Below, piece after piece: positions 6,930-58,843 of a stretch of 64,000 nt of DNA. The first letter of the stretch is position 1; every line of letters begins with the position of its first letter. Origin of the DNA: a virus (Duplodnaviria; Heunggongvirae; Uroviricota; Caudoviricetes); the IMG/VR virus record IMGVR_UViG_3300025000_000063, positions 1-64,000 of that record; one strand, 5' to 3'. Both the position numbers and the translations under genes were made by a program. Below the pieces are notes generated by a model. The model searched no databases. It was given only the letters and a program-made list of their open reading frames with translations, and was not told the DNA's origin.

Positions 6930-7700
6930 TTACTTCTTCTGAAACAGTAGCCGTTTTTTCAATTCTTCTTTTGCCCGAAACGCTATAGGCTCTTTTTTTC
7001 TTGCACCACGATTGCAAACTATTTCTATCTCGGTCAGATACCCATCAGATGTTGACTGGTGGGTTATTAAGCTGGGGTACTGTTTAATCTTTTTCTTGAA
7101 GTCAGAGGCGCGGAACTCAGGAACACACATAGCCCTCGACAGGGCTGTAACAAACGGCTTTGATGAAGCGTATTTAAGGCCCAGGCTTTGCATATACAGA
7201 ACCACGTCTTTTATTCTGTCGGTGAGCTTTGTGCTGGTGACTTTGTATGTCCCGTTAATAAACATATCACTGTAGTTTCCGCCGGAACCGGAAGGACTCC
7301 CTCTAAAAAACCCGATGGCGGTCGCGAGAGGAATCCTTGTTTCTTCGATAAAATCCTTTATCACAATATAATCTGGTCTTCCGTCTCTGACATACCCGTT
7401 CAGGAAATCGTGGAGAGACCATTTATTAACCGTCTTGGCCAAGTCGGGGATTGATATATCATCATTGCAGACAACGTATTTCGCCGGTATCCCCAAACTC
7501 TGAGCCACTTCAAGCCGGTGATGGCCGTCAATGACTTTAAATTTTTTGTTACCGTTGACTCTGACATGGCATGGATAAGCAGGTATCCAACCATGTTCAC
7601 GCATTGCCTTTGTTAAAAATCTGATCTTTGAAACATCCCGGTTGATCGGATGGAGTTCAAATTTTTCATAATCTGTCGTTGACCTTACTAAATCATTCAT
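6930..7700 (-). CDS. ParB/Srx-fold N-terminal domain protein (ParB-like nuclease domain)
   Basis: KVIDGHHRLEVAQSLGIP is the characteristic ParB N-terminal GxxR box. The start codon overlaps the upstream gene. Confidence 0.6.
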   Translation of the reverse strand: MNDLVRSTTDYEKFELHPINRDVSKIRFLTKAMREHGWIPAYPCHVRVNGNKKFKVIDGHHRLEVAQSLGIPAKYVVCNDDISIPDLAKTVNKWSLHDFLNGYVRDGRPDYIVIKDFIEETRIPLATAIGFFRGSPSGSGGNYSDMFINGTYKVTSTKLTDRIKDVVLYMQSLGLKYASSKPFVTALSRAMCVPEFRASDFKKKIKQYPSLITHQSTSDGYLTEIEIVCNRGARKKEPIAFRAKEELKKRLLFQKK

Positions 7701-8467
7701 GATACAATCCTTTCTATGTGGTTATTTATCCAAGCGACGACCCTCTCAAAAGCCTCTCTTCTTTGGGGGTCGTCGCTTCTAATCCTTTCTAATTGAGAAA
7801 TCGCCATCGTTGAGAACTGCATTGCAGAAGATGCTCGTTTGATATCTTCTTTTTTTGGCTCAACATTAATTTTCTTATAAGCCCCGGCAACACTCTTGTT
7901 AAGATCCTTCTTTAATTCTTTGGCCTTCTCAGGGTCAGATTGTTTCAAGCTGTCAATAGCATCCACAACAGCAATTGCTTTTTCAGCCGTTTTCCCTGAC
8001 CATCCTACTTTTGCGGCTGCGATGTCACGGGACTTACCTTCGCTTAGTGGTGGTAAATTTTCCACAACTAAAGGTTTGCCTGTTTTATGGACTTCCAGGT
8101 TTTTTGCACCGGCGGCAGCTTGTCTATCAGCCGCCCTCTTATCCTCAATCGCCTTCAACACTTTAACCTCCCTGGCTTTCTGTTCCTTGGTCTTCTCCCT
8201 CTGGACGTTGGAAGCTATAAGAATTTCCACCAGCTTATCCGGGTCGGTTTCTTCAATCTCCTGAACCGGGATGACTTCATGTTTGAGAGCTTTGCAGACA
8301 TTCCAACGACGATGCCCGGAAATGATGGTGAAATCTAAGGTAACGATTACCGGAGAGGTAATGCCGTGTTTTTTTATGCTCTGATAAAGATCGTCGTCAA
8401 ACGAATCACCATATATGAGGTTGTTTTGCGGGTGAGGTTTAAGACTATTAATAGGAGCATGATTCAT
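7697..8467 (-). CDS. ParB-like N-terminal domain protein with a Lys-rich C-terminal half
   Basis: LKPHPQNNLIYGD...ISGHRRW is a ParB-N motif. It is arranged in tandem with the second ParB-like gene. Confidence 0.6.
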   Translation of the reverse strand: MNHAPINSLKPHPQNNLIYGDSFDDDLYQSIKKHGITSPVIVTLDFTIISGHRRWNVCKALKHEVIPVQEIEETDPDKLVEILIASNVQREKTKEQKAREVKVLKAIEDKRAADRQAAAGAKNLEVHKTGKPLVVENLPPLSEGKSRDIAAAKVGWSGKTAEKAIAVVDAIDSLKQSDPEKAKELKKDLNKSVAGAYKKINVEPKKEDIKRASSAMQFSTMAISQLERIRSDDPQRREAFERVVAWINNHIERIVS

Positions 8468-8649: not shown

Positions 8650-8707
8650 GTTTCTTGCACTTTAATCTTTTAAAAAAGACTTGTCAAGTATTTTTTTTTA
8701 TTTTTTT

Positions 8708-8953
8708 TTATTCATCATAAAAGGACGCACAGGTTTCGGTCCCTGGCTCCAATTCAGTGTGACCGGCGTCCTTCACAACAAATGCTCCTTTCTCAAATAC
8801 TATCTCTTTAAATTTCTTATCACTGACGGCCAGCACCACCACATTCATATAATACTCTTTGTGATTAATACCCGTAGCTGCGTGAACCGCTTGAGCGGCC
8901 AACTTACCAGGCGACATTTTCAAATTTTTCCGGTAAATTATTTTGAGTCTCAT
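8708..8953 (-). CDS. PTH2-family peptidyl-tRNA hydrolase-like protein (short, 81 aa)
   Basis: NLKMSPGKLAAQAVHAA matches the PTH2 signature (GKGK[IL]AAQ..HAA). The protein ends with DAGHTELEPGTET and appears to lack the last about 25 residues of canonical PTH2. Confidence 0.5.
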   Translation of the reverse strand: MRLKIIYRKNLKMSPGKLAAQAVHAATGINHKEYYMNVVVLAVSDKKFKEIVFEKGAFVVKDAGHTELEPGTETCASFYDE

Positions 8954-9044
8954 TAAAACACCAAAACATAAATAAACTGAGCCACGGTTGATACGGTCAA
9001 AGACAACAAAATAACCGCCACGGCCATCAATAAAAAATAAATAA

Positions 9045-9620
9045 TTATTTCAATAATTTGCATATTTCCCCCGCAAAATCTTTCAGTTCACCAAAAGCAG
9101 GACGGCACCTGAGATCCCACCCCCTATATTTATCCAAGGCTGTTTCTGAACTGTGACGAGCGGCCGGGCCGGACTCCCAACCAACATAAGGGTCAATCCG
9201 GACAAGAATTCCGCCATTGTCTTTAACGAACTCAGCCTCATCTTCAAAACGAACGTCATCAATTACCACCCCGGGGCAGTCGTTGTCTTGGAGTTCATTC
9301 AAGCGCCTTTTCATCTGTTTTGTCCAGTACGCCAGGTCTTGTTTACGCCGGATTTCAGTAGCGTGCCATTGAAGCAAATCACGAACAGTTGTTTGAGGAG
9401 GTGTATACTCCACACCGTCAATAAAATATTTTTCTCTCAACTGGCAAGCCCATTGTTTGTGATGATAACAAACCTCAAGGGGAATCCCATAAATCTGGCT
9501 AACTTCCTGTTTAACCGGGTTTGCAAAAGACGCCCTGACAAACCCTGTTAATCTCACCAATTCTCTGGAGGTCTCTGTTTTACCTGATCCTATTTTTCCC
9601 GAGATACCGATTAATTTCAT
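9045..9620 (-). CDS. P-loop kinase, deoxynucleoside monophosphate kinase family-like
   Basis: MKLIGISGKIGSGKTET is a Walker A motif. FANPVKQEVSQIYGIP resembles the phage dNMP kinase (T4 gp1-like) substrate loop. Confidence 0.55.
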   Translation of the reverse strand: MKLIGISGKIGSGKTETSRELVRLTGFVRASFANPVKQEVSQIYGIPLEVCYHHKQWACQLREKYFIDGVEYTPPQTTVRDLLQWHATEIRRKQDLAYWTKQMKRRLNELQDNDCPGVVIDDVRFEDEAEFVKDNGGILVRIDPYVGWESGPAARHSSETALDKYRGWDLRCRPAFGELKDFAGEICKLLK

Positions 9621-9621
9621 C

Positions 9622-10980
9622 CTACTCTCCTTTTACCGCTGAAATTTTAGAAGGTATTCCTGCTTTTCTAAGAATATCCCCATAATGACTACATACCCCC
9701 ACATTTCCTACTACATTTATCCCCCCCGGTTTACTTTTTATCAGGGAATGCAACCGGGTTAGTTTATCCTTCGTAGACCCCTCTTCTGGAATAAAGAAAT
9801 CGACATATTCAACACCTTCGGCCCCCTCAACAATAGTAACCCCGTCACTCTGAGCGCCAAACTCCCTGTGGAGCTGAACACACCACACTTCAGCTCCGTC
9901 AAACACCCATTCCATTTTTACGCCGCATAAAACCTGCTCCGCTTTTTCATATACCTTTTTAACCGCCGACACAACTTCTTCGGGGATATCCTCTGCCTGT
10001 TTCCCCATCATAAACTCGTCGCCAGCCCCCGCCACCCCTTGGACAAAACCTCGAACAACAGCCCCAGACCACACAGACTTGACGCTTTCTTGACAGATAA
10101 TAGATTTTATAGGCACGTCTTCTTCTTCCTTGATCATCTCAAAAGGGTCTTTCCACCCGAAAAAAGTGGAATAATACCCAGGATGCGGAACTTCCGGACA
10201 AGTCCGTATCCATTTCTCAGTCTCACCCGTTTTTTTACCAAAAACAAAGACAGCAACGTTTCTGGGAATAACCGTCGTCTTAGGCACCCTCAAGCCTATG
10301 GCCTGAGCCACAAGAAGGCCAAAAACTTTATCCCCAAGAAAGCGACTGAAATTATTAGGCCATAAAATTTCAGAATTTACAGGTGAGAAAGAATCAAAAA
10401 CCTCTAACTCCCAAAAAATTATGTGATCATGAGCGTAACCGACTTTTTTCGGATGCAGACTAAACTCTATCCTTTCACCCGGCCTGGGATTCAGCCGAAT
10501 CGGAAACTTATAAACCTCTTCCAAAAGCATAACACCCATGCCAACCGGCAACCGACACGCCCCCGGTTTATCGACACATTTTGGCGTGTCGCCAGGAGAA
10601 AATTCAATGACGCCTCCAAAAACAACCCCTGATACGCCCCCGTCATGAATAGAAATGCTCTCATTCACTATGACGTGGTAACCTTTTTCAAAAGCTTCAT
10701 CCAAACACCTCATAACCTCAGAAACAGAACCGAGATCGAAGATAAGCGACGTCCCTTTAGGGTCGTCAGGGGTAAATCTCCGGATATTGACCGATGAAAC
10801 ATTTTTCAGCAGCCTCTCCACACCCTCTTCAACACAGGGAAAAGAATAATTCGGTTCCGCCCCTCTTATTCTGCAAAAAGTTTGTTCGTATCTGGTTTCC
10901 CCCGGAACAAACGAAATAAACTGAGCCACATTACCTCTTTCTGACAAGCTATTCAAAATCTCATCTTTTTTCATTCTCAC
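9622..10980 (-). CDS. PEP-utilising-enzyme-like ATP-grasp protein (PPDK_N / PEP synthase N-domain-like), 452 aa
   Basis: GDKVFGLLVAQAIGLRVPKTTVIP resembles GGKxANLxExxxxGxPVPxGFxI. The later block EWVFDGAEVWCVQLHRE resembles the EWAxDGxxLxxLQxRP motif of PEP synthase / rifampin phosphotransferase ATP-grasp domains. Confidence 0.4.
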   Translation of the reverse strand: MRMKKDEILNSLSERGNVAQFISFVPGETRYEQTFCRIRGAEPNYSFPCVEEGVERLLKNVSSVNIRRFTPDDPKGTSLIFDLGSVSEVMRCLDEAFEKGYHVIVNESISIHDGGVSGVVFGGVIEFSPGDTPKCVDKPGACRLPVGMGVMLLEEVYKFPIRLNPRPGERIEFSLHPKKVGYAHDHIIFWELEVFDSFSPVNSEILWPNNFSRFLGDKVFGLLVAQAIGLRVPKTTVIPRNVAVFVFGKKTGETEKWIRTCPEVPHPGYYSTFFGWKDPFEMIKEEEDVPIKSIICQESVKSVWSGAVVRGFVQGVAGAGDEFMMGKQAEDIPEEVVSAVKKVYEKAEQVLCGVKMEWVFDGAEVWCVQLHREFGAQSDGVTIVEGAEGVEYVDFFIPEEGSTKDKLTRLHSLIKSKPGGINVVGNVGVCSHYGDILRKAGIPSKISAVKGE

Positions 10981-11695: not shown

Positions 11696-12033
11696 GGAAT
11701 ACCGATATTCAATCGAAACCTGAAGCCCCGCAATGGGCGGGCATCTCCAAGGTCGTGTAACTTTATGAAAATCTGAAAAACGTTCAATACTCGAAATTTA
11801 AAGTTAGCCGCTTTTGAAGACAGGCTATAGACTATTGTTTTAGAATTAGCTTTAAAGTCGAAAAAATTGAACGGTTTTTGACATCTTCGATATCCTTTAA
11901 AGTAACTCGCGCTTCGTCTGCTTACTCCTGCTATTATCTTCGCCGTTACATTAGAGACTCGATTTTTCAGTGTGTATTTTTTTACCCAATTTTCCTGTAA
12001 ATCGCTCCAGGCTATTGTTTCAGAATTAGCCAT
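11674..12033 (-). CDS. doubtful ORF (119 aa) inside a structured, repeat-rich noncoding-looking region
   Basis: No convincing RBS. The composition is Arg/Lys/Phe-rich and odd. It contains two copies of a 24 bp DNA repeat. It may not be coding. Confidence 0.2.
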   Translation of the reverse strand: MANSETIAWSDLQENWVKKYTLKNRVSNVTAKIIAGVSRRSASYFKGYRRCQKPFNFFDFKANSKTIVYSLSSKAANFKFRVLNVFQIFIKLHDLGDARPLRGFRFRLNIGIPIRENRF

Positions 12034-12394
12034 TTTTTCTGTTCCCTTTAGAGAAATTTTAAATTTATTTTAGAGTTCATCGCCTGTTAAAACCTTTGAT
12101 ATACTATTAACACAGAGTTACAAATAAAGCAAGTTTAGAGAACATTTAAAGTACAGCCTTTTTCGCTAACCAGGAGATAATAGCCCAGCAAGGTTCTCCA
12201 GCTTTTAGCAATAAATGCAATCTTTCCGAGCAGGCGTTCACCACAACCTCCGCCACAGGCTGTTGTTTCAGAGTTACAGAGGCTTTCATGGTGAACGCCC
12301 GCTCGGAATCGTTTTGTCGGGTTTTTTAGTGTTTTGTCGGTGTTAAAAATAGGTCGGCCGTCGGGTGAAAAGCGGTTAGATTTTCCGTGAAACA

Positions 12395-15805: not shown

Positions 15806-16225
15806 TCATTCCCCCCAGTTAATAACCCAGTTCTTTTCTTTGCAAATAGCTATGATCAAATCTGAGTCTTTCATTGTTGGAGGACCGGGAACCCACAGGT
15901 CTCTTTTCTCTTGGAAAAAATGCAATCTTTCAACTTTTTTCCCGCCATATGGGCATGGGCCGCCATCCGCCCAGATATCAAACATTTCGGGCTTTGGATG
16001 CGCCCAAGCGTCTCTTCGCATAAGTTCAAGCGTGAGAGCGGGTGGCAATTTACCAAGTTGGCATCTTAATATGCTGACCGGGAAGAAAGCAAAGCTGCAC
16101 CGTTCTGCAAAGCTGCACTGTTCCGGGAAGTTTTTGATTAACGAATAATCCCCGGTAGGGCAGTGTTTGACTCTATGATAGTCAACAGGAAATAAATCAA
16201 ATTCTTTTTGTGTGTACTTTTTCAT
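15806..16225 (-). CDS. hypothetical protein (139 aa)
   Basis: ORF. Its stop overlaps the upstream Thg1-like gene. Confidence 0.45.
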   Translation of the reverse strand: MKKYTQKEFDLFPVDYHRVKHCPTGDYSLIKNFPEQCSFAERCSFAFFPVSILRCQLGKLPPALTLELMRRDAWAHPKPEMFDIWADGGPCPYGGKKVERLHFFQEKRDLWVPGPPTMKDSDLIIAICKEKNWVINWGE

Positions 16226-16926
16226 TTCACCAGCTCCTCTATAATTTCCTTGTTTTCAGTGAAAATCGCATCAGGCCTTGCAGAAATCCCCTCCGCTCCT
16301 CTAAACATAAATCCCCCGTTTTTCCATACCGGGTCGAGATCTGCCCAGTTGATTCCTTTTGTGTAGAGCAATTCATGCAGGTCCGGTGTCTTTTTGTTTT
16401 GGAGTTCCTTGTGCGGGAAATGAGCCTGGGCCAGCATTTGAATAGAATTTCTGAGCCAATCTTGTTGCCTCCAGATGAAATAATTACACACCTCTTCCTT
16501 TGGGATATTGAACACCCGGCAGTCGAATAGCCCGTCTTCGCCAAAGGTTTTTGAAAACTGAACCGAGGCCATACCCGCTGCGACTGAACACATTTTTTGG
16601 ATATTGTAATCAAACCATGCCTCGGTTGTTAACAGTTCGTAGTCTGTCAATAATAAGGAGATTTCATCTGATTGAACGTAGGCGCATTTAGCGCCCTGTA
16701 CTTTCGCTAAAAGGGTCAAAGCGGTTGAGCCCATACACTGTCTGAACATATCGTCAAAAGGTTTGTTGCATTGACGAGTCAGCGTGTGAAAGGCCTTGCC
16801 GTCCAGTCGCATTATGACTGGCGTTCGCCGGGTGAGTTTTAACCGGTAGCGGTCTTCATAATTCTTTTTCATTCTGTCGCCTAAACTGTCATTCTTCATA
16901 TAAACCCCCTTTCCTTCGCCAACCAT
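16222..16926 (-). CDS. Thg1-like protein (tRNA-His guanylyltransferase family, 3'-5' nucleotide polymerase)
   Basis: VIMRLDGKAFH and VQSDEISLLL match the two catalytic aspartate-containing motifs of Thg1/TLP ([VI]V[VI]R.DGR.FH and GQSDEYSF). The C-terminal region, YFIWRQQDWLRNSIQ, also resembles the family. The true start is probably MKNDS at about 16899. Confidence 0.7.
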   Translation of the reverse strand: MVGEGKGVYMKNDSLGDRMKKNYEDRYRLKLTRRTPVIMRLDGKAFHTLTRQCNKPFDDMFRQCMGSTALTLLAKVQGAKCAYVQSDEISLLLTDYELLTTEAWFDYNIQKMCSVAAGMASVQFSKTFGEDGLFDCRVFNIPKEEVCNYFIWRQQDWLRNSIQMLAQAHFPHKELQNKKTPDLHELLYTKGINWADLDPVWKNGGFMFRGAEGISARPDAIFTENKEIIEELVK

Positions 16927-17700: not shown

Positions 17701-17740
17701 CTCGTTAATGGGGAGCGGGCCAACAACAAAGGAGAAAATT

Positions 17741-19732
17741 ATGGATTTTAACATTTTTAAAAAGGCAATGGAATCCCAGTTTGCAAAAATGACCGGGGAG
17801 TTTTTTGTAACTGACGTGGACAAAGATGAGATGTGGAATCTTTATCTCAACAGTTTCCCTCCTGGAACAAACGAAATTTACAGAACAAGACGGGAGTATG
17901 ACTGCCAATGCTGTAAGCAGTTTATCCGGGCCTGCGGTAATGTTATTTCGTTTTCAAGCGGAGAGAGGATGTCTATCTGGGATGTTCAAGTGGATGGCGC
18001 TTTTAAAGTGGTTGCCGAAGCCATGTCAAGATTCGTTAAGGCTGCGCCGGTTAAAAACGTTTTCCGGTATTTCCAAAACAGAGTCGGAACTGACCACAAT
18101 GTTCAGATGGGCGAGGAAGGGAGAATGATAACTTGGAACCATTTTTCACTTGATTTGCCCGCGAGCGTTGTCCGGCCTGCGGACTCAATTGATTCTTTGA
18201 TCGGTGAAATTCGTAGCAGTCAGGAAGTGTTTTTCAGGGGGCTCAATGAAATAACTGTTGAAGCTCTGGAAACGGTTCTGGAATTGATCGCTCAGAATTC
18301 TCTTTACCGGGGGGAAGAACATCAGGCGGCGGTAAAAGCTTTTTCCAAGCTCAAAAAAGAATTCGATAAAAGCGCCGAAAAAATTGATTTTTCATGGATT
18401 CACTCCGGTGCAAAATGCGCCAGAATTCGGAACACTGCAATAGGAACTCTTCTGGTTGATATTTCTAACGACATGCCGCTGGATCAGGCCGTCAGGATGT
18501 TTGAATCGAAAGTCGCCCCGGCCAATTACAAACGTCCTACCGCCCTTGTTACCAAAGGCATGATTGAAAAAGCCCAGAAAACGGTGGAAGAACTGGGCAT
18601 TGAATCTGCTTTAAAACGTCGGTTCGCTGTTGAGCAGGATCTGACCATTAATAACATTCTGTTTGCGGACAGGGCCACCAAAGTTTCCATGAACGTGTTT
18701 GATGACCTGAAAGACGACGTTTCCGTACCAGTGAAGTCGTTGGAGAAAGTCGAAGAGGTCAGTGTCGGGGCGTTTGTTGAGAGCATTCTCCCCCAAGCAT
18801 CCAGTATATCTCTTTTGTTTGAAAACAGGCATTGCGGGAACCTGGTGTCTCTGATTTCCCCGTGCGATCTTGCTGCCAAAAATATTTTCAAATGGAAAAA
18901 CAATTTCTCCTGGTCGTATAAAGGGGAGTTTGCCGACTCGATTAAAGAAAGAGTGAAGGCCGCCGGCGGGAGTGTTACCGGGGATTTACGACTGTCCATT
19001 GGCTGGTTCAATTATGATGATCTGGACAATCATCTGGTAGAACCAGGAACATTCCATATCTATTTTCCATCAAGTAACCGAGTTAACCCCATCTCTTTGG
19101 GGCAACTCGACGTAGACATGAACGCAATGAGTGGTAAATCCAGATCCGCCGTTGAAAACATAACTTACCCGGAAAAGAGGAGGATACAGGAGGGGTACTA
19201 TACTTGGTTCGTTAACCAGTTTACCAGGAGAGAAACTGTAGATGTGGGTTTCACTGCTGAAATGGAGTTTGAGGGAAAGATTTACACATTCAATTACCCT
19301 AAAGCGGTTGTGGGCAATGTTATCGTGGCAAAGTTTAAATACTCTCACACAAACGGGATAGAGATCCTTGAGTCTCTTCCATCAACAGAAACCTCTAAAA
19401 TTGAATGGTGTTTGTCTACCCAGAAATTCCATGACGTTTCGATGATTATGAACTCTCCAAACCATTGGGATGGTAACGAAACAGGCAATAAACATTATTT
19501 TTTCATGCTTAAGGGATGTAAAAACGTTGATTCAGCCCGGGGTTTTTACAACGAGTTTTTGAACGAGGGGTTAACAGAACACCGGAAAGTATTCGAAATT
19601 TTAGGATCTAAAATGAAAGTAGAACCCTCGGATAACCAATTGAGCGGGTTGGGCTTTTCTTCCACTCAAAGAAATCATGTTTTCTGCAAAGTCGCAGGAA
19701 ACTTTACCAGAACAATTAAAATCGTATTTTAA
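17741..19732 (+). CDS. large hypothetical protein (663 aa), first gene of the rightward operon
   Basis: AAAGGAGAAAATT RBS before ATG 17741. I recognise no family. An N-terminal Cys cluster, CQCCKQFIRAC, is present. Confidence 0.55.
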   Translation: MDFNIFKKAMESQFAKMTGEFFVTDVDKDEMWNLYLNSFPPGTNEIYRTRREYDCQCCKQFIRACGNVISFSSGERMSIWDVQVDGAFKVVAEAMSRFVKAAPVKNVFRYFQNRVGTDHNVQMGEEGRMITWNHFSLDLPASVVRPADSIDSLIGEIRSSQEVFFRGLNEITVEALETVLELIAQNSLYRGEEHQAAVKAFSKLKKEFDKSAEKIDFSWIHSGAKCARIRNTAIGTLLVDISNDMPLDQAVRMFESKVAPANYKRPTALVTKGMIEKAQKTVEELGIESALKRRFAVEQDLTINNILFADRATKVSMNVFDDLKDDVSVPVKSLEKVEEVSVGAFVESILPQASSISLLFENRHCGNLVSLISPCDLAAKNIFKWKNNFSWSYKGEFADSIKERVKAAGGSVTGDLRLSIGWFNYDDLDNHLVEPGTFHIYFPSSNRVNPISLGQLDVDMNAMSGKSRSAVENITYPEKRRIQEGYYTWFVNQFTRRETVDVGFTAEMEFEGKIYTFNYPKAVVGNVIVAKFKYSHTNGIEILESLPSTETSKIEWCLSTQKFHDVSMIMNSPNHWDGNETGNKHYFFMLKGCKNVDSARGFYNEFLNEGLTEHRKVFEILGSKMKVEPSDNQLSGLGFSSTQRNHVFCKVAGNFTRTIKIVF

Positions 19733-22369: not shown

Positions 22370-23014
22370 ATGAGTAGCCTATATTGGGATGATTTTGAAA
22401 GACGTATATCTGAAACTGTTTCAGCCGTTAATTCAAAAACCAAACCCCCGGTCAGGCGTGTGGCTGTTTTTATAACGAACCGGTGTAATTTCAGGTGTCA
22501 TTACTGCAATGTAAACCAAAACGAAAAAACATTATCCGAAGAAGCTTTTAATGGCATCATTAATCGCTACGGGAGTGGCGCGATAATCCATATAACTGGT
22601 GGTGAGCCTTCCGTTGTTCCTTGGTTATACTCTTATATGGAAAACAGAAAGGATGTCCGGTTTCATTTAAATACTAACGCCTATTTAGCTCCTCCTAAAA
22701 ACATTAAAAGGTTAAAAGTTTCACTGGACACTCAGTATAAAGATTATTTTAATTTTTTAATTGGGGTTAATTTTAACGCTTTCGATTCGGTGGTGGAAAA
22801 TATAAGGCAAGCGTGTAAAAATACGGTTGTCAGTATAACCTATACTTTGACAAAAGAAAACCATAAGGATTCCGTTGAATTCGCCAAATGGGCGTTAAAA
22901 CAATTCCCCGGTCTATACGCTGTTTTTTTCAGTGTTTACAAAGGAGATAATAAGAGGTTTAAGTTTGATGATTTGTCAGTTAAAGTTTTTTTAATCAGGT
23001 GTTACCTAAGTTGA
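22370..23014 (+). CDS. radical SAM enzyme, N-terminal core (CxxxCxxC = CNFRCHYC; ITGGEP SAM-binding motif)
   Basis: VAVFITNRCNFRCHYC and IIHITGGEPSVVP are present. The frame ends just after the slippery run TTTTTTA at 22987-22993. Confidence 0.65.
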   Translation: MSSLYWDDFERRISETVSAVNSKTKPPVRRVAVFITNRCNFRCHYCNVNQNEKTLSEEAFNGIINRYGSGAIIHITGGEPSVVPWLYSYMENRKDVRFHLNTNAYLAPPKNIKRLKVSLDTQYKDYFNFLIGVNFNAFDSVVENIRQACKNTVVSITYTLTKENHKDSVEFAKWALKQFPGLYAVFFSVYKGDNKRFKFDDLSVKVFLIRCYLS

Positions 23015-57204: not shown

Positions 57205-57899
57205 TTTCTTTTATACGCCTTAAAAATAGGAAGATTCCTTTTTTCATCCAACTGAGGGGTATGCCATAAATGGATAACGGAATAAGATAAATTGCGTTTT
57301 ATTTTACATTTATGTATTTTCAGCTTAATATCAAAAACGGTGTCCTCATGACCATAACCGATACATTGTTCCGGAAATCCACCCACCTGAATAAAAACAT
57401 CCTTTTTAATGCAAAAACATCCACCAGAAATTACTGAAGAATCTTGGATTTTGATAGGGTTTTTGACAATTACATCAAATCCCGCGAGGATTACCGCGCT
57501 GGGTATATTTCCTACATAGACAACCTTCCCATAGGGATCAACCACATCATTTTCCTGGATATCTTTGATGGTGGTTAAGTAAACATCTTCTGATACCACC
57601 AGGTCAATATCATGGAAAAACAGAATGGCATACTTAGCGTTCAGGGCACCCAAATTATACAAAAAGGATTTGTAAAATAGCCCTGGATCGTTAACAAAGA
57701 TAACCTCAATACCTTCTTTAAAAAAAGTTTGTTTTACGCCCTGCTCTACCACAATAATTTGTTTTTCAATCGGTAAAGCTTCTATCCGTTTCAAAACAAA
57801 TTTGATGTTTTCTTCCCTGAATTGATCCGCCGCTTTATATGAAAGGATAAAGGAAATCATCACACAAACTCCAAATGGTCGTATTCGGTTGTCATGCAA
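57192..57899 (-). CDS. GT-A fold glycosyltransferase (GT2 / Glyco_transf_7C-like)
   Basis: LFFHDIDL is DxD. GGCFCIKKDVF...GGFPE...GYGHED is a galactosyltransferase-like C-terminal motif. Confidence 0.55.
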   Translation of the reverse strand: MHDNRIRPFGVCVMISFILSYKAADQFREENIKFVLKRIEALPIEKQIIVVEQGVKQTFFKEGIEVIFVNDPGLFYKSFLYNLGALNAKYAILFFHDIDLVVSEDVYLTTIKDIQENDVVDPYGKVVYVGNIPSAVILAGFDVIVKNPIKIQDSSVISGGCFCIKKDVFIQVGGFPEQCIGYGHEDTVFDIKLKIHKCKIKRNLSYSVIHLWHTPQLDEKRNLPIFKAYKRKCKA

Positions 57900-58843
57900 T
57901 CCAAAGCCGTATTATACTCTTGGTAATAGCATCTATAGCAACTGGAACCCTCATAAACTTTCTGAGAAGCAAAATAAGTAGGAATATCCTCAATATGACA
58001 CATCCGCATTTCTTCCGGGAAAACGCCCTGTGTTTCAGGCAAAGCATACTGAACACCACAACAAGGGTAAACAAATCCATCAGGAGCAATCACAGGCTTC
58101 AGTAAACTGATCTTACATTTACTCGTTCCCATGCTGTATTCCTGCCGGGATTGGTAAATGACGATAGAATCATCCACTCCGTATTCTTTCATTAATTCCC
58201 GGATAAAAACCGGCGATGGAACCCGATCAAGGTCAAGGAGATCGCTCACGGCCCTCACGTGGGTGAATCCATGATCGTTTGCAAACTGGACTGCCTTGGC
58301 AAACTTCTGAATTTTAAAATTCCTGGTGACGACATAACTGAATGCCCAATCAATTTTATTCTCTGTGACCAAAGGAAATAAAATGGAAAAGAGTTTGTCT
58401 AAATCCCTGTCATCAGATACACTCACCCGGCACCAAGTCAGGAGTGAAATTTCCTTTAAAATCCTTTCAATGAGATATCCGTTAGTGACAAGCCCTAATT
58501 TAAACCGGGCACCGCTTAAACAACGGATTATCTCAGGTAGATTCGGATGACAGCAAGGTTCCCCACCCCCAGTTATTGTCACAGCCGCTGAACCCAAAGA
58601 ATAAAAGATATCTGAAAGATTTTGCACCTGTTTTAAAGAAAGCTGTTGCGATTTCTCCCTGGCGGAACAAGAACAAAAAGCACAATTCAAATTACATGCA
58701 TTTGTTGGGCACAATTGAAAATGAATTGGTTTGATAAATAAATCATACGTCAAACAAGTCCTGGCAATTCTAAGCAATTTCCCTGGGAGAGTGTTCGCAG
58801 ATGAATATGAAACTACTTTATCAACTGGATTCATTTGTGCCAC
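57860..58843 (-). CDS. radical SAM enzyme with a C-terminal SPASM/twitch-like Cys cluster
   Basis: CPTNACNLNCAFC is CxxxCxxC. ITGGGEP is a SAM-binding motif. The C-terminus has PCCGVQY...C..C...C. Confidence 0.65.
   Translation of the reverse strand: MAQMNPVDKVVSYSSANTLPGKLLRIARTCLTYDLFIKPIHFQLCPTNACNLNCAFCSCSAREKSQQLSLKQVQNLSDIFYSLGSAAVTITGGGEPCCHPNLPEIIRCLSGARFKLGLVTNGYLIERILKEISLLTWCRVSVSDDRDLDKLFSILFPLVTENKIDWAFSYVVTRNFKIQKFAKAVQFANDHGFTHVRAVSDLLDLDRVPSPVFIRELMKEYGVDDSIVIYQSRQEYSMGTSKCKISLLKPVIAPDGFVYPCCGVQYALPETQGVFPEEMRMCHIEDIPTYFASQKVYEGSSCYRCYYQEYNTALDCMTTEYDHLEFV

Follow-up and report, generated by a model that had tools for sequence, protein, structure and literature searches.

A stretch of 64,000 nucleotides of phage DNA (positions 1 to 64,000 of the IMG/VR record IMGVR_UViG_3300025000_000063; hereafter the window) encodes on its minus strand, at 8708..8953, a protein of 81 amino acids (aa) that is a member of the PTH2 family of peptidyl-tRNA hydrolases by its hidden Markov model (HMM) score, fold and active-site residues, and is not an archaeal Pth2 equivalog by the NCBI criteria. 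The open reading frame (ORF), as given by the ORF list and the sequence, comprises an ATG start, 81 codons and a TAA stop, and its translation is MRLKIIYRKNLKMSPGKLAAQAVHAATGINHKEYYMNVVVLAVSDKKFKEIVFEKGAFVVKDAGHTELEPGTETCASFYDE. The protein belongs to a reduced two-helix, phage-restricted clade with a C-terminal motif of its own, which is not described in the literature examined, and it probably acts as a minimal PTH2-type esterase that would help to maintain the tRNA pool during infection. With its 81 aa it is 34-40 residues shorter than the canonical Pth2 (115-121 aa), in line with the shortage of about 30 residues noticed in the original prediction, whose assignment of the gene to the PTH2 type instead of the bacterial Pth type is borne out by the profile match, the fold and the residue conservation described below. 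Neither of the outcomes that would have spoken against it, a lack of any PTH2 HMM match or an unrelated small alpha/beta protein, was observed. The phage setting assumed there is confirmed by the genes for a major head protein, tape measure, tail fibre, DNA polymerase, exonuclease and primase-helicase, typical of a tailed phage, while megablast of the window positions 1-25000 against 50,697 phage records gave zero matches, and the phage is therefore not a sequenced isolate.

The search with the Pfam profile PF01981 (PTH2), which had been suggested along with the original prediction, matches the 81-aa product over the profile positions 2-95 of 115 with an E value of 1.1e-10 and a score of 42.1 bits, the gathering cut-off being 23. 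Nothing besides PTH2 was found in the Pfam scan of this protein up to an E value of 10, including no match to Pth1 (Pept_tRNA_hydro) or RF-1, and the GGQ motif is absent from its sequence. The significant matches of phmmer against all PDB sequences were the archaeal Pth2 (1xty, 1rlk, 2zv3, 1wn2, 1rzw) and the human Bit1/PTRH2 (1q7s) only, the rest being noise, and the profile built from 69 family members retrieved from the PDB exclusively Pth2 and Bit1, with E values of 1.4e-18 to 1.9e-12.

The AlphaFold2 model obtained on the family alignment is compact, with a mean predicted local distance difference test (pLDDT) of 95 and a predicted template modelling score (pTM) of 0.83, and consists of four strands and two helices in the order beta1 (residues 2-8), alpha1 (15-28), beta2 (38-43), a second helix (45-55), beta3 (58-61) and beta4 (73-80). 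The top 13 Foldseek matches of the model in the PDB are all PTH2 or Bit1 structures (probability 1.0, TMq 0.64-0.81), with the next match at an E value of 0.43, and in a viral structure library it matches proteins of giant viruses and phages that are annotated as peptidyl-tRNA hydrolases. The canonical Pth2 of 116-120 aa is built of four strands and four helices (PMC11202043). As the alignments show, the 81-aa form has lost the alpha2 stretch that follows alpha1, of about 10-20 residues (e.g., SMKINRDVFNEWYDEGQRK in 1rlk), a few residues flanking the third canonical helix, and everything after beta4, i.e., the 'GP..ID.ITG.LKLL' helix, and has retained the four-stranded sheet, the helix alpha1 with GK..AAQ..H and the D-x-G-x-T-E hairpin.

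The columns K17, A19, A20, Q21, H24, D62, G64, T66 and E67 are invariant in the alignment of 69 sequences at 40-85% identity, and they fall into two segments of the gene. The first comprises residues 10-26 (NLKMSPGKLAAQAVHAA; 8876..8926, minus strand), which make up a loop and the N-terminal part of the helix alpha1 and carry K17, A19, A20, Q21 and H24; the second comprises residues 62-67, DAGHTE (8753..8770, minus strand; codons GAC GCC GGT CAC ACT GAA), at the start of the beta3-beta4 hairpin, with D62, G64, T66 and E67. In the alignment with 1xty, K17, D62 and T66 correspond to K18, D86 and T90 of the Sulfolobus solfataricus Pth2, which the mutagenesis work of Fromant et al. in 2005 is said to have found essential for activity. 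By analogy with that enzyme, K17 and D62 would form the acid-base pair and T66 would be the nucleophile, and the predicted catalytic K, D and T are kept in 182-186 of 186 short-form sequences.

The small size is a property of the clade and not of a single gene. More than 100 sequence clusters have the form of 80-95 aa, nearly all of them on phage or metagenome contigs; a large protein search returned 87 relatives, almost all of 69-100 aa and every one with a precomputed PF01981 match; and an exhaustive profile search gave 5,203 PTH2-like representatives at E <=1e-3, of which 763 stayed within E <=1e-10, the top 150 being overwhelmingly short. Both catalytic motifs are present in 207 of the 229 family proteins retrieved, and in 186 of these 207 the spacing from K to D is short (<=60 residues), mostly 40-54 residues in the short form as compared with about 55-84 in full-length forms. 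The short form ends with an aromatic-x-acidic motif, the position D+16 being aromatic in 156/186 sequences (84%) and D+18 acidic in 144/186 (77%), whereas the canonical proteins have I-G-P at the same point, followed by a helix. The codon comparison with two homologues of 70-79% identity gave a proportion of non-synonymous differences (pN) of 0.13-0.21 against a saturated synonymous one (pS) of 0.77-0.89, with pN/pS of about 0.17-0.23, which indicates purifying selection on the short PTH2. Moreover, independent metagenomes yielded at least 16 contigs with the identical gene, and the same phage, with the same gene order and the identical PTH2, was met again in groundwater metagenomes and others of independent origin.

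The best 80 relatives among 185,579 scanned cellular species genomes were almost all archaeal full-length Pth2, and the sole short-form match lies on a 2.6-kb contig of a Dyadobacter metagenome-assembled genome, which is too weak a basis for host assignment; the short clade is thus essentially restricted to phages. IMG/VR contains two classes of PTH2, a short one and a long one, the latter having 110-150 aa together with alpha2 and the C-terminal helix. A subclass of the long phage PTH2, of about 145-150 aa (L048-L053, L058, L059, L061, L063 and other IMG/VR loci), carries D-A-C-x-T-E-L instead of D-A-G-x-T-E, together with an acidic insertion of about 10 residues in the beta3-beta4 hairpin (TPEEVDENGVGRT), and many of its genes lie in tRNA arrays. 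Entries of 69-71 aa that begin with 'MSPGK...' (P0006, P0013, P0015, P0020, P0023, P0037 and others) were considered as still smaller variants and rejected as start-codon miscalls cutting off beta1, since at the locus L175 the upstream frame encodes the missing strand, MTRLKIVYRRNLK; a 106-aa entry (P0003) was likewise rejected as a larger variant, its start being over-extended and the extension unconserved. Among 10 longer relatives scanned, the only fusion with a known domain above the Pfam cut-off was found in the 239-aa metagenome protein P0108, in which the short-form PTH2 is followed by a C-terminal Fic/DOC domain with intact HPFxDGNGRxxR (Pfam Fic, E value 1e-7); there was also one weak match below the cut-off to DUF7695, and the remaining proteins are either full-length PTH2 of eukaryote-like type or carry only extensions without annotation. 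In gp147 of Vibrio phage ICP1 (L001, 5980..6288, annotated as hypothetical), G16 is replaced by Q and Q21 by V ('SPQKLAAVCTH'), with K, H, D, G, T and E kept, and by this substitution pattern the activity of gp147 may be altered.

The strongest context signal for the phage PTH2 is given by tRNA arrays. Three or more tRNA genes were found within 5 kb at 9 of the 26 short-form loci and 16 of the 49 long-form loci, as compared with 5 of the 76 control loci of phage Thg1, and the tRNA density reached 0.39 per kb for the short form and 0.33 for the long form versus 0.057 for the Thg1 control, a difference of about 6-7 times with Fisher p-values of 0.001 and 3e-5 that are approximate, because the loci are phylogenetically non-independent. 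The PTH2 gene directly follows 13 tRNA genes in Microbacterium phage Pumpernickel, and 13-22 tRNAs surround the gene at many metagenomic loci, at one of them together with a transfer-messenger RNA (tmRNA). This strong placement suggests that the phage PTH2 serves the phage-encoded tRNAs, and the likeness of the short and long forms in this respect argues for the same job in the short form.

Genes of RNA repair and translation rescue are scattered around the short-form loci. The census of Pfam families among 222 neighbours (>=95 aa, within 4 kb) of 26 non-redundant loci showed scattered occurrences of RNA_ligase, RtcB, YAcAr (twice), LDcluster4, HAD_SAK_2, PolyA_pol and RF-1, with an RNA ligase immediately downstream of PTH2 (L008), the gene order PTH2-YAcAr-RtcB (L012), and a 142-aa ArfB-like RF-1 domain protein (11733..12161) 3.5 kb from PTH2, accompanied by an RNA ligase (L006). 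The RF-1 gene of L006 shares a tRNA array with the short-form PTH2, and at L027 such an array contains, besides a short-form PTH2, a tmRNA gene (18410..18862) with the tag ANESFALAA; from these ArfB-like and tmRNA occurrences, one case each, it follows that the phages concerned encode several layers of translation rescue. A CCA-adding enzyme is found three genes from PTH2 in Pseudaeromonas phage KLEP7, while in the phage of the 70%-identical homologue (L175) the RlaP gene is two genes and the CCA-adding enzyme 7 kb away. As no neighbour family recurs in the census of the 26 loci, an operon or a two-component system for the short PTH2 was considered and rejected.

The Thg1-like 3'-5' nucleotidyltransferase gene, which was expected about 7 kb from PTH2, is real: it lies at 16222..16926 on the minus strand, 7.3 kb upstream in the same co-directional block (Pfam Thg1, E value 1.5e-25; PHROG 4717, tRNA-His guanylyltransferase, E value 1.9e-81), and is the only other tRNA-related gene found in the window. 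In at least 7 phage lineages a Thg1-like gene occurs within 10 kb of PTH2, and in four of them, all with the long form, within about 1.1 kb or abutting it. However, when the 80 best phage Thg1 loci were examined in turn, a single one had PTH2 within 10 kb, by which an obligate Thg1-PTH2 pair was rejected; the two genes belong to the same accessory gene pool and are not a module. The toolkit for tRNA repair or translation maintenance, proposed from this proximity, is supported at the level of the family, by the enrichment in tRNA arrays and by the RtcB, RNA ligase, CCA-adding enzyme, RlaP, ArfB-like RF-1 and Thg1 neighbours; of these, Thg1 alone was found in the window itself.

Taken together with the conserved active site, this context is most consistent with a protein that would strip peptidyl or N-blocked aminoacyl groups from tRNAs dropped off or released from ribosomes, and the deacylation would preserve a usable supply of host and phage tRNAs while infection proceeds. 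The gene may be counted as a part of a loose accessory set for tRNA maintenance in large phages, which would include tRNA arrays, Thg1, the CCA-adding enzyme, RNA ligases and ArfB-like factors. The main substrate of the enzymes of the Pth type is peptidyl-tRNA that is no longer on the 70S ribosome, whereas stalled ribosomes are rescued by ArfB or tmRNA-type factors, and the rescue of stalled ribosomes, as worded in the original prediction, is accordingly imprecise. The same tRNA role has been proposed for phage PTH2 in PMC7824862 and PMC5966550.

Several observations weigh against such an assignment, besides the non-independence of the loci already mentioned. The 81-aa protein stays far below the equivalog cut-offs of NCBIfam NF003314 and TIGR00283 (46.8 versus 126 bits and 42 versus 82 bits, respectively) and, of the four helices of the canonical fold, lacks both alpha2 and the C-terminal alpha4. 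ARAGORN found 0 tRNA genes in the 64-kb window, and tblastn of the window with RtcB, RNA ligase, CCA-adding enzyme, ArfB, YAcAr, SLOG, RlaP and DUF4326 seeds yielded the DUF8224 homologue alone; at the 26 short-form loci, the neighbour census showed no conserved partner. Bacterial hosts already possess the essential Pth1, which leaves the need for a second hydrolase unexplained, and the literature searches found no experimental work or assay on phage PTH2, the short clade included.

With a considerably lower probability, the protein is an active esterase that serves counter-defence, its substrates being tRNAs damaged by host immunity or toxins, such as N-acetyl-aminoacyl-tRNA produced by GNAT toxins of the TacT/AtaT type, or peptidyl-tRNA halves left after the attack of anticodon nucleases, which would have to be deacylated before the repair by RtcB, RNA ligase, Thg1 or the CCA enzyme. 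The acetylation of aminoacyl-tRNA by TacT is reversed by bacterial Pth (PMC9241777), and the hydrolysis of peptidyl links on cleaved tRNAs has been proposed by Iyer et al. (PMC7824862). In several phages RtcB, RNA ligase, RlaP, the CCA-adding enzyme, HAD_SAK_2 and YAcAr/SLOG adjoin the short-form PTH2, one homologue stands beside DarA/DarB-like anti-restriction genes, and the Fic fusion fits as well, although as a single case it is too few to argue from. However, the repair-gene neighbours are sporadic, without a conserved partner, the seed searches of the window yielded no ligase or RtcB, and the tRNA arrays in general, which are the strongest association, are equally compatible with housekeeping. 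A stricter version, in which the short clade is a phage-specific minimal esterase, the smallest known, with its substrate range retuned to immunity-damaged tRNAs by the loss of alpha2 and alpha4 and dedicated to counter-defence upstream of the repair by Thg1, CCA-adding enzyme and ligase instead of duplicating the housekeeping Pth, appears somewhat more doubtful still.

It is improbable that the protein is a non-catalytic remnant which binds tRNA or the CCA end, serves as a decoy or inhibits a host factor. The absence of two of the four helices, the score under the equivalog cut-offs and the substitutions of ICP1 gp147 at two otherwise invariant positions would agree with such a loss of catalysis; however, neither the proposed catalytic K, D and T nor the motif around them varies across a deep clade, which is a pattern expected of an enzyme and not of a binder, and the missing helices are peripheral to the region of alpha1 and the hairpin motif. 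The loss of alpha2 and alpha4 could also have relaxed or altered the recognition of the substrate, and TIGR00283 is named 'aminoacyl-tRNA hydrolase' by NCBIfam, so that a shut-off of the host, or another substrate, may be imagined, with the deacylation of ordinary aminoacyl-tRNA or another ester (aminoacylated nucleotides, lipids) reprogramming the host translation; this is marginally less probable again than a remnant, as the position inside the phage tRNA arrays argues for supporting, not destroying, the tRNA function. A truncated pseudogene or chance ORF, to which the shortness and the lack of a strong Shine-Dalgarno sequence before the ORF might point, is refuted by the conservation data, given the identical gene on at least 16 independent contigs, more than 100 clusters of the same length, the compact high-confidence model, the purifying selection, and the 69-71 aa entries that are miscalls and not further truncations.

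Compared with the known systems, the 81-aa protein has in common with the archaeal and eukaryotic Pth2 (PF01981; S. solfataricus 1XTY, P. horikoshii 1WN2, A. fulgidus 3ERJ, human PTRH2/Bit1 1Q7S) the core of the fold and the motifs GK(L/I)AAQ..HA on alpha1 and D-A-G-x-T-E-(V/L)-x-P-G-T on the beta3-beta4 hairpin, but it is encoded by a phage, has 2 instead of 4 helices and carries the aromatic-x-acidic C-terminus in place of I-G-P. The bacterial Pth1 and the GGQ-type hydrolases ArfB/ICT1 would catalyse the same expected reaction, the hydrolysis of the peptidyl-tRNA ester, with unrelated folds and active sites. The viral PTH2 proteins reported previously, those of jumbo phages, RaK2 (ORF188), cluster C mycobacteriophages, Agrobacterium phage Atu_ph07 and giant viruses, belong to this family too; they are likewise predicted to act in tRNA recycling and are associated with tRNA genes and genes of RNA repair as well. 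Most of the full-length phage versions retrieved, however, are of 110-150 aa with alpha2 and the C-terminal helix, and the literature examined does not take up the reduced form. PTH2 was noted in Klebsiella phage RaK2 in 2013, in the tRNA arrays of cluster C mycobacteriophages together with RF-1 and tmRNA, and in jumbo phages as an RNA-repair component beside Thg1, the CCA-adding enzyme and RNA ligases by Iyer et al. 2021 (PMC7824862).

The annotated short phage homologues are of the same clade, with 37-42% identity over the full length, and occur in different lineages and neighbourhoods. The 93-aa gp109 of Pseudaeromonas phage KLEP7 is already annotated as 'peptidyl-tRNA hydrolase, Pth2 domain', and many short homologues from metagenomes carry the automatic label 'peptidyl-tRNA hydrolase' of the Joint Genome Institute (JGI), while ICP1 gp147 and the Aeromonas phage homologues are 'hypothetical' and PHROG 31188 and 1866 are of 'unknown function'. 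Since phage PTH2 has been both published and automatically annotated, including homologues of about 90 aa, the conceptual gain from one gene is small and the novelty implied in the original prediction was overstated: PTH2 in a large phage is unsurprising to a specialist, and the small size is the only unusual feature of the window gene. The minimal fold and the association with tRNA arrays are the noteworthy aspects of the find, which adds to the picture of large phages carrying their own genes for tRNA-pool maintenance. If active, the 81-aa protein would be, to our knowledge, the smallest peptidyl-tRNA hydrolase, and would define the sheet, the helix alpha1 and the hairpin as the minimal catalytic core of the PTH2 fold, being useful for studies of enzyme minimalism and for mapping the tRNA-recognising parts of Pth2. 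The family includes such tractable phages as Vibrio phage ICP1 (gp147) and the Aeromonas phages.

In the window, PTH2 is the last gene of a co-directional block on the minus strand, in the order Thg1-like gene, small ORFs, Prim-Pol/AAA_25 primase-helicase, small ORFs, a 452-aa protein of unknown function, deoxynucleoside monophosphate (dNMP) kinase, a 36-aa hydrophobic ORF and PTH2, which places the gene in a module of replication and nucleotide metabolism. The hydrophobic ORF (8953..9063, minus strand), between the dNMP kinase and PTH2, was also called as a gene on two independent contigs of this phage from metagenomes, and the overlap of its TAA with the ATG of PTH2 (TAATG) suggests translational coupling. 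Just 3' of the PTH2 stop, before the helix-turn-helix (HTH) gene and two ParB-like genes, there is a promoter-like TTGACA-17-TAAAGT (8659..8687, minus strand; 10/12 in the consensus scan), a consensus match only, the number of such matches being no higher than in shuffled sequence; with such a promoter, the unit of PTH2 would end with this gene and a new one would begin for the HTH and ParB genes. The two tandem ParB-like genes of 256 aa each (6930..8467, minus strand) follow a 61-aa HTH regulator directly downstream of PTH2, one of them reaching the Pfam ParB_N cut-off and the other being detected by PHROG 12305 only.

The 452-aa protein, two genes upstream of PTH2 (9622..10980, minus strand), has no match in Pfam, PHROG, NCBIfam or the PDB sequences, and its 629 homologues of about 45% identity (Rhizobium, Sinorhizobium, Agrobacterium, Roseovarius, Acidobacteria, Larkinella, Firmicutes) are all 'hypothetical', many of them being of about 685 aa with an additional N-terminal region of about 235 aa. 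Its model (pLDDT 91.7) contains an ATP-grasp domain, with RimK/Ddl-like Foldseek matches over about 180 aa, and its invariant C-terminal 'G.VG.TSH.GD.LRKA.IPS' resembles what we take to be the phospho-histidine swivel motif of phosphoenolpyruvate (PEP)-utilising enzymes; it appears to represent an uncharacterised enzyme family common to bacteria and the window phage.

On the plus strand, divergent from the Thg1-like gene and about 0.8 kb from it, lies a gene for a 674-aa protein (17708..19732) that matches PHROG 1735 of unknown function (E value 3.9e-263) and DUF8224 in the precomputed Pfam. A homologue of 46% identity in a related phage (L175, 11767..13779) directly follows the RlaP nucleotidyltransferase gene near a short-form PTH2, and the DUF8224 protein may belong to the RNA-related gene set. 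Two radical-SAM-like proteins are also encoded in the window, at 22370..23014 (plus strand) and 57860..58843 (minus strand), with matches to Pfam Radical_SAM (E value 1.1e-11) and PHROG 13987 (E value 2e-6). At the short-form locus L022, PTPS/QueD adjoins PTH2, and GTP cyclohydrolase I and QueC occurred in the same batch of the neighbour census, not being mapped to a locus, which hints at 7-deazaguanine metabolism in the phage group of the window.

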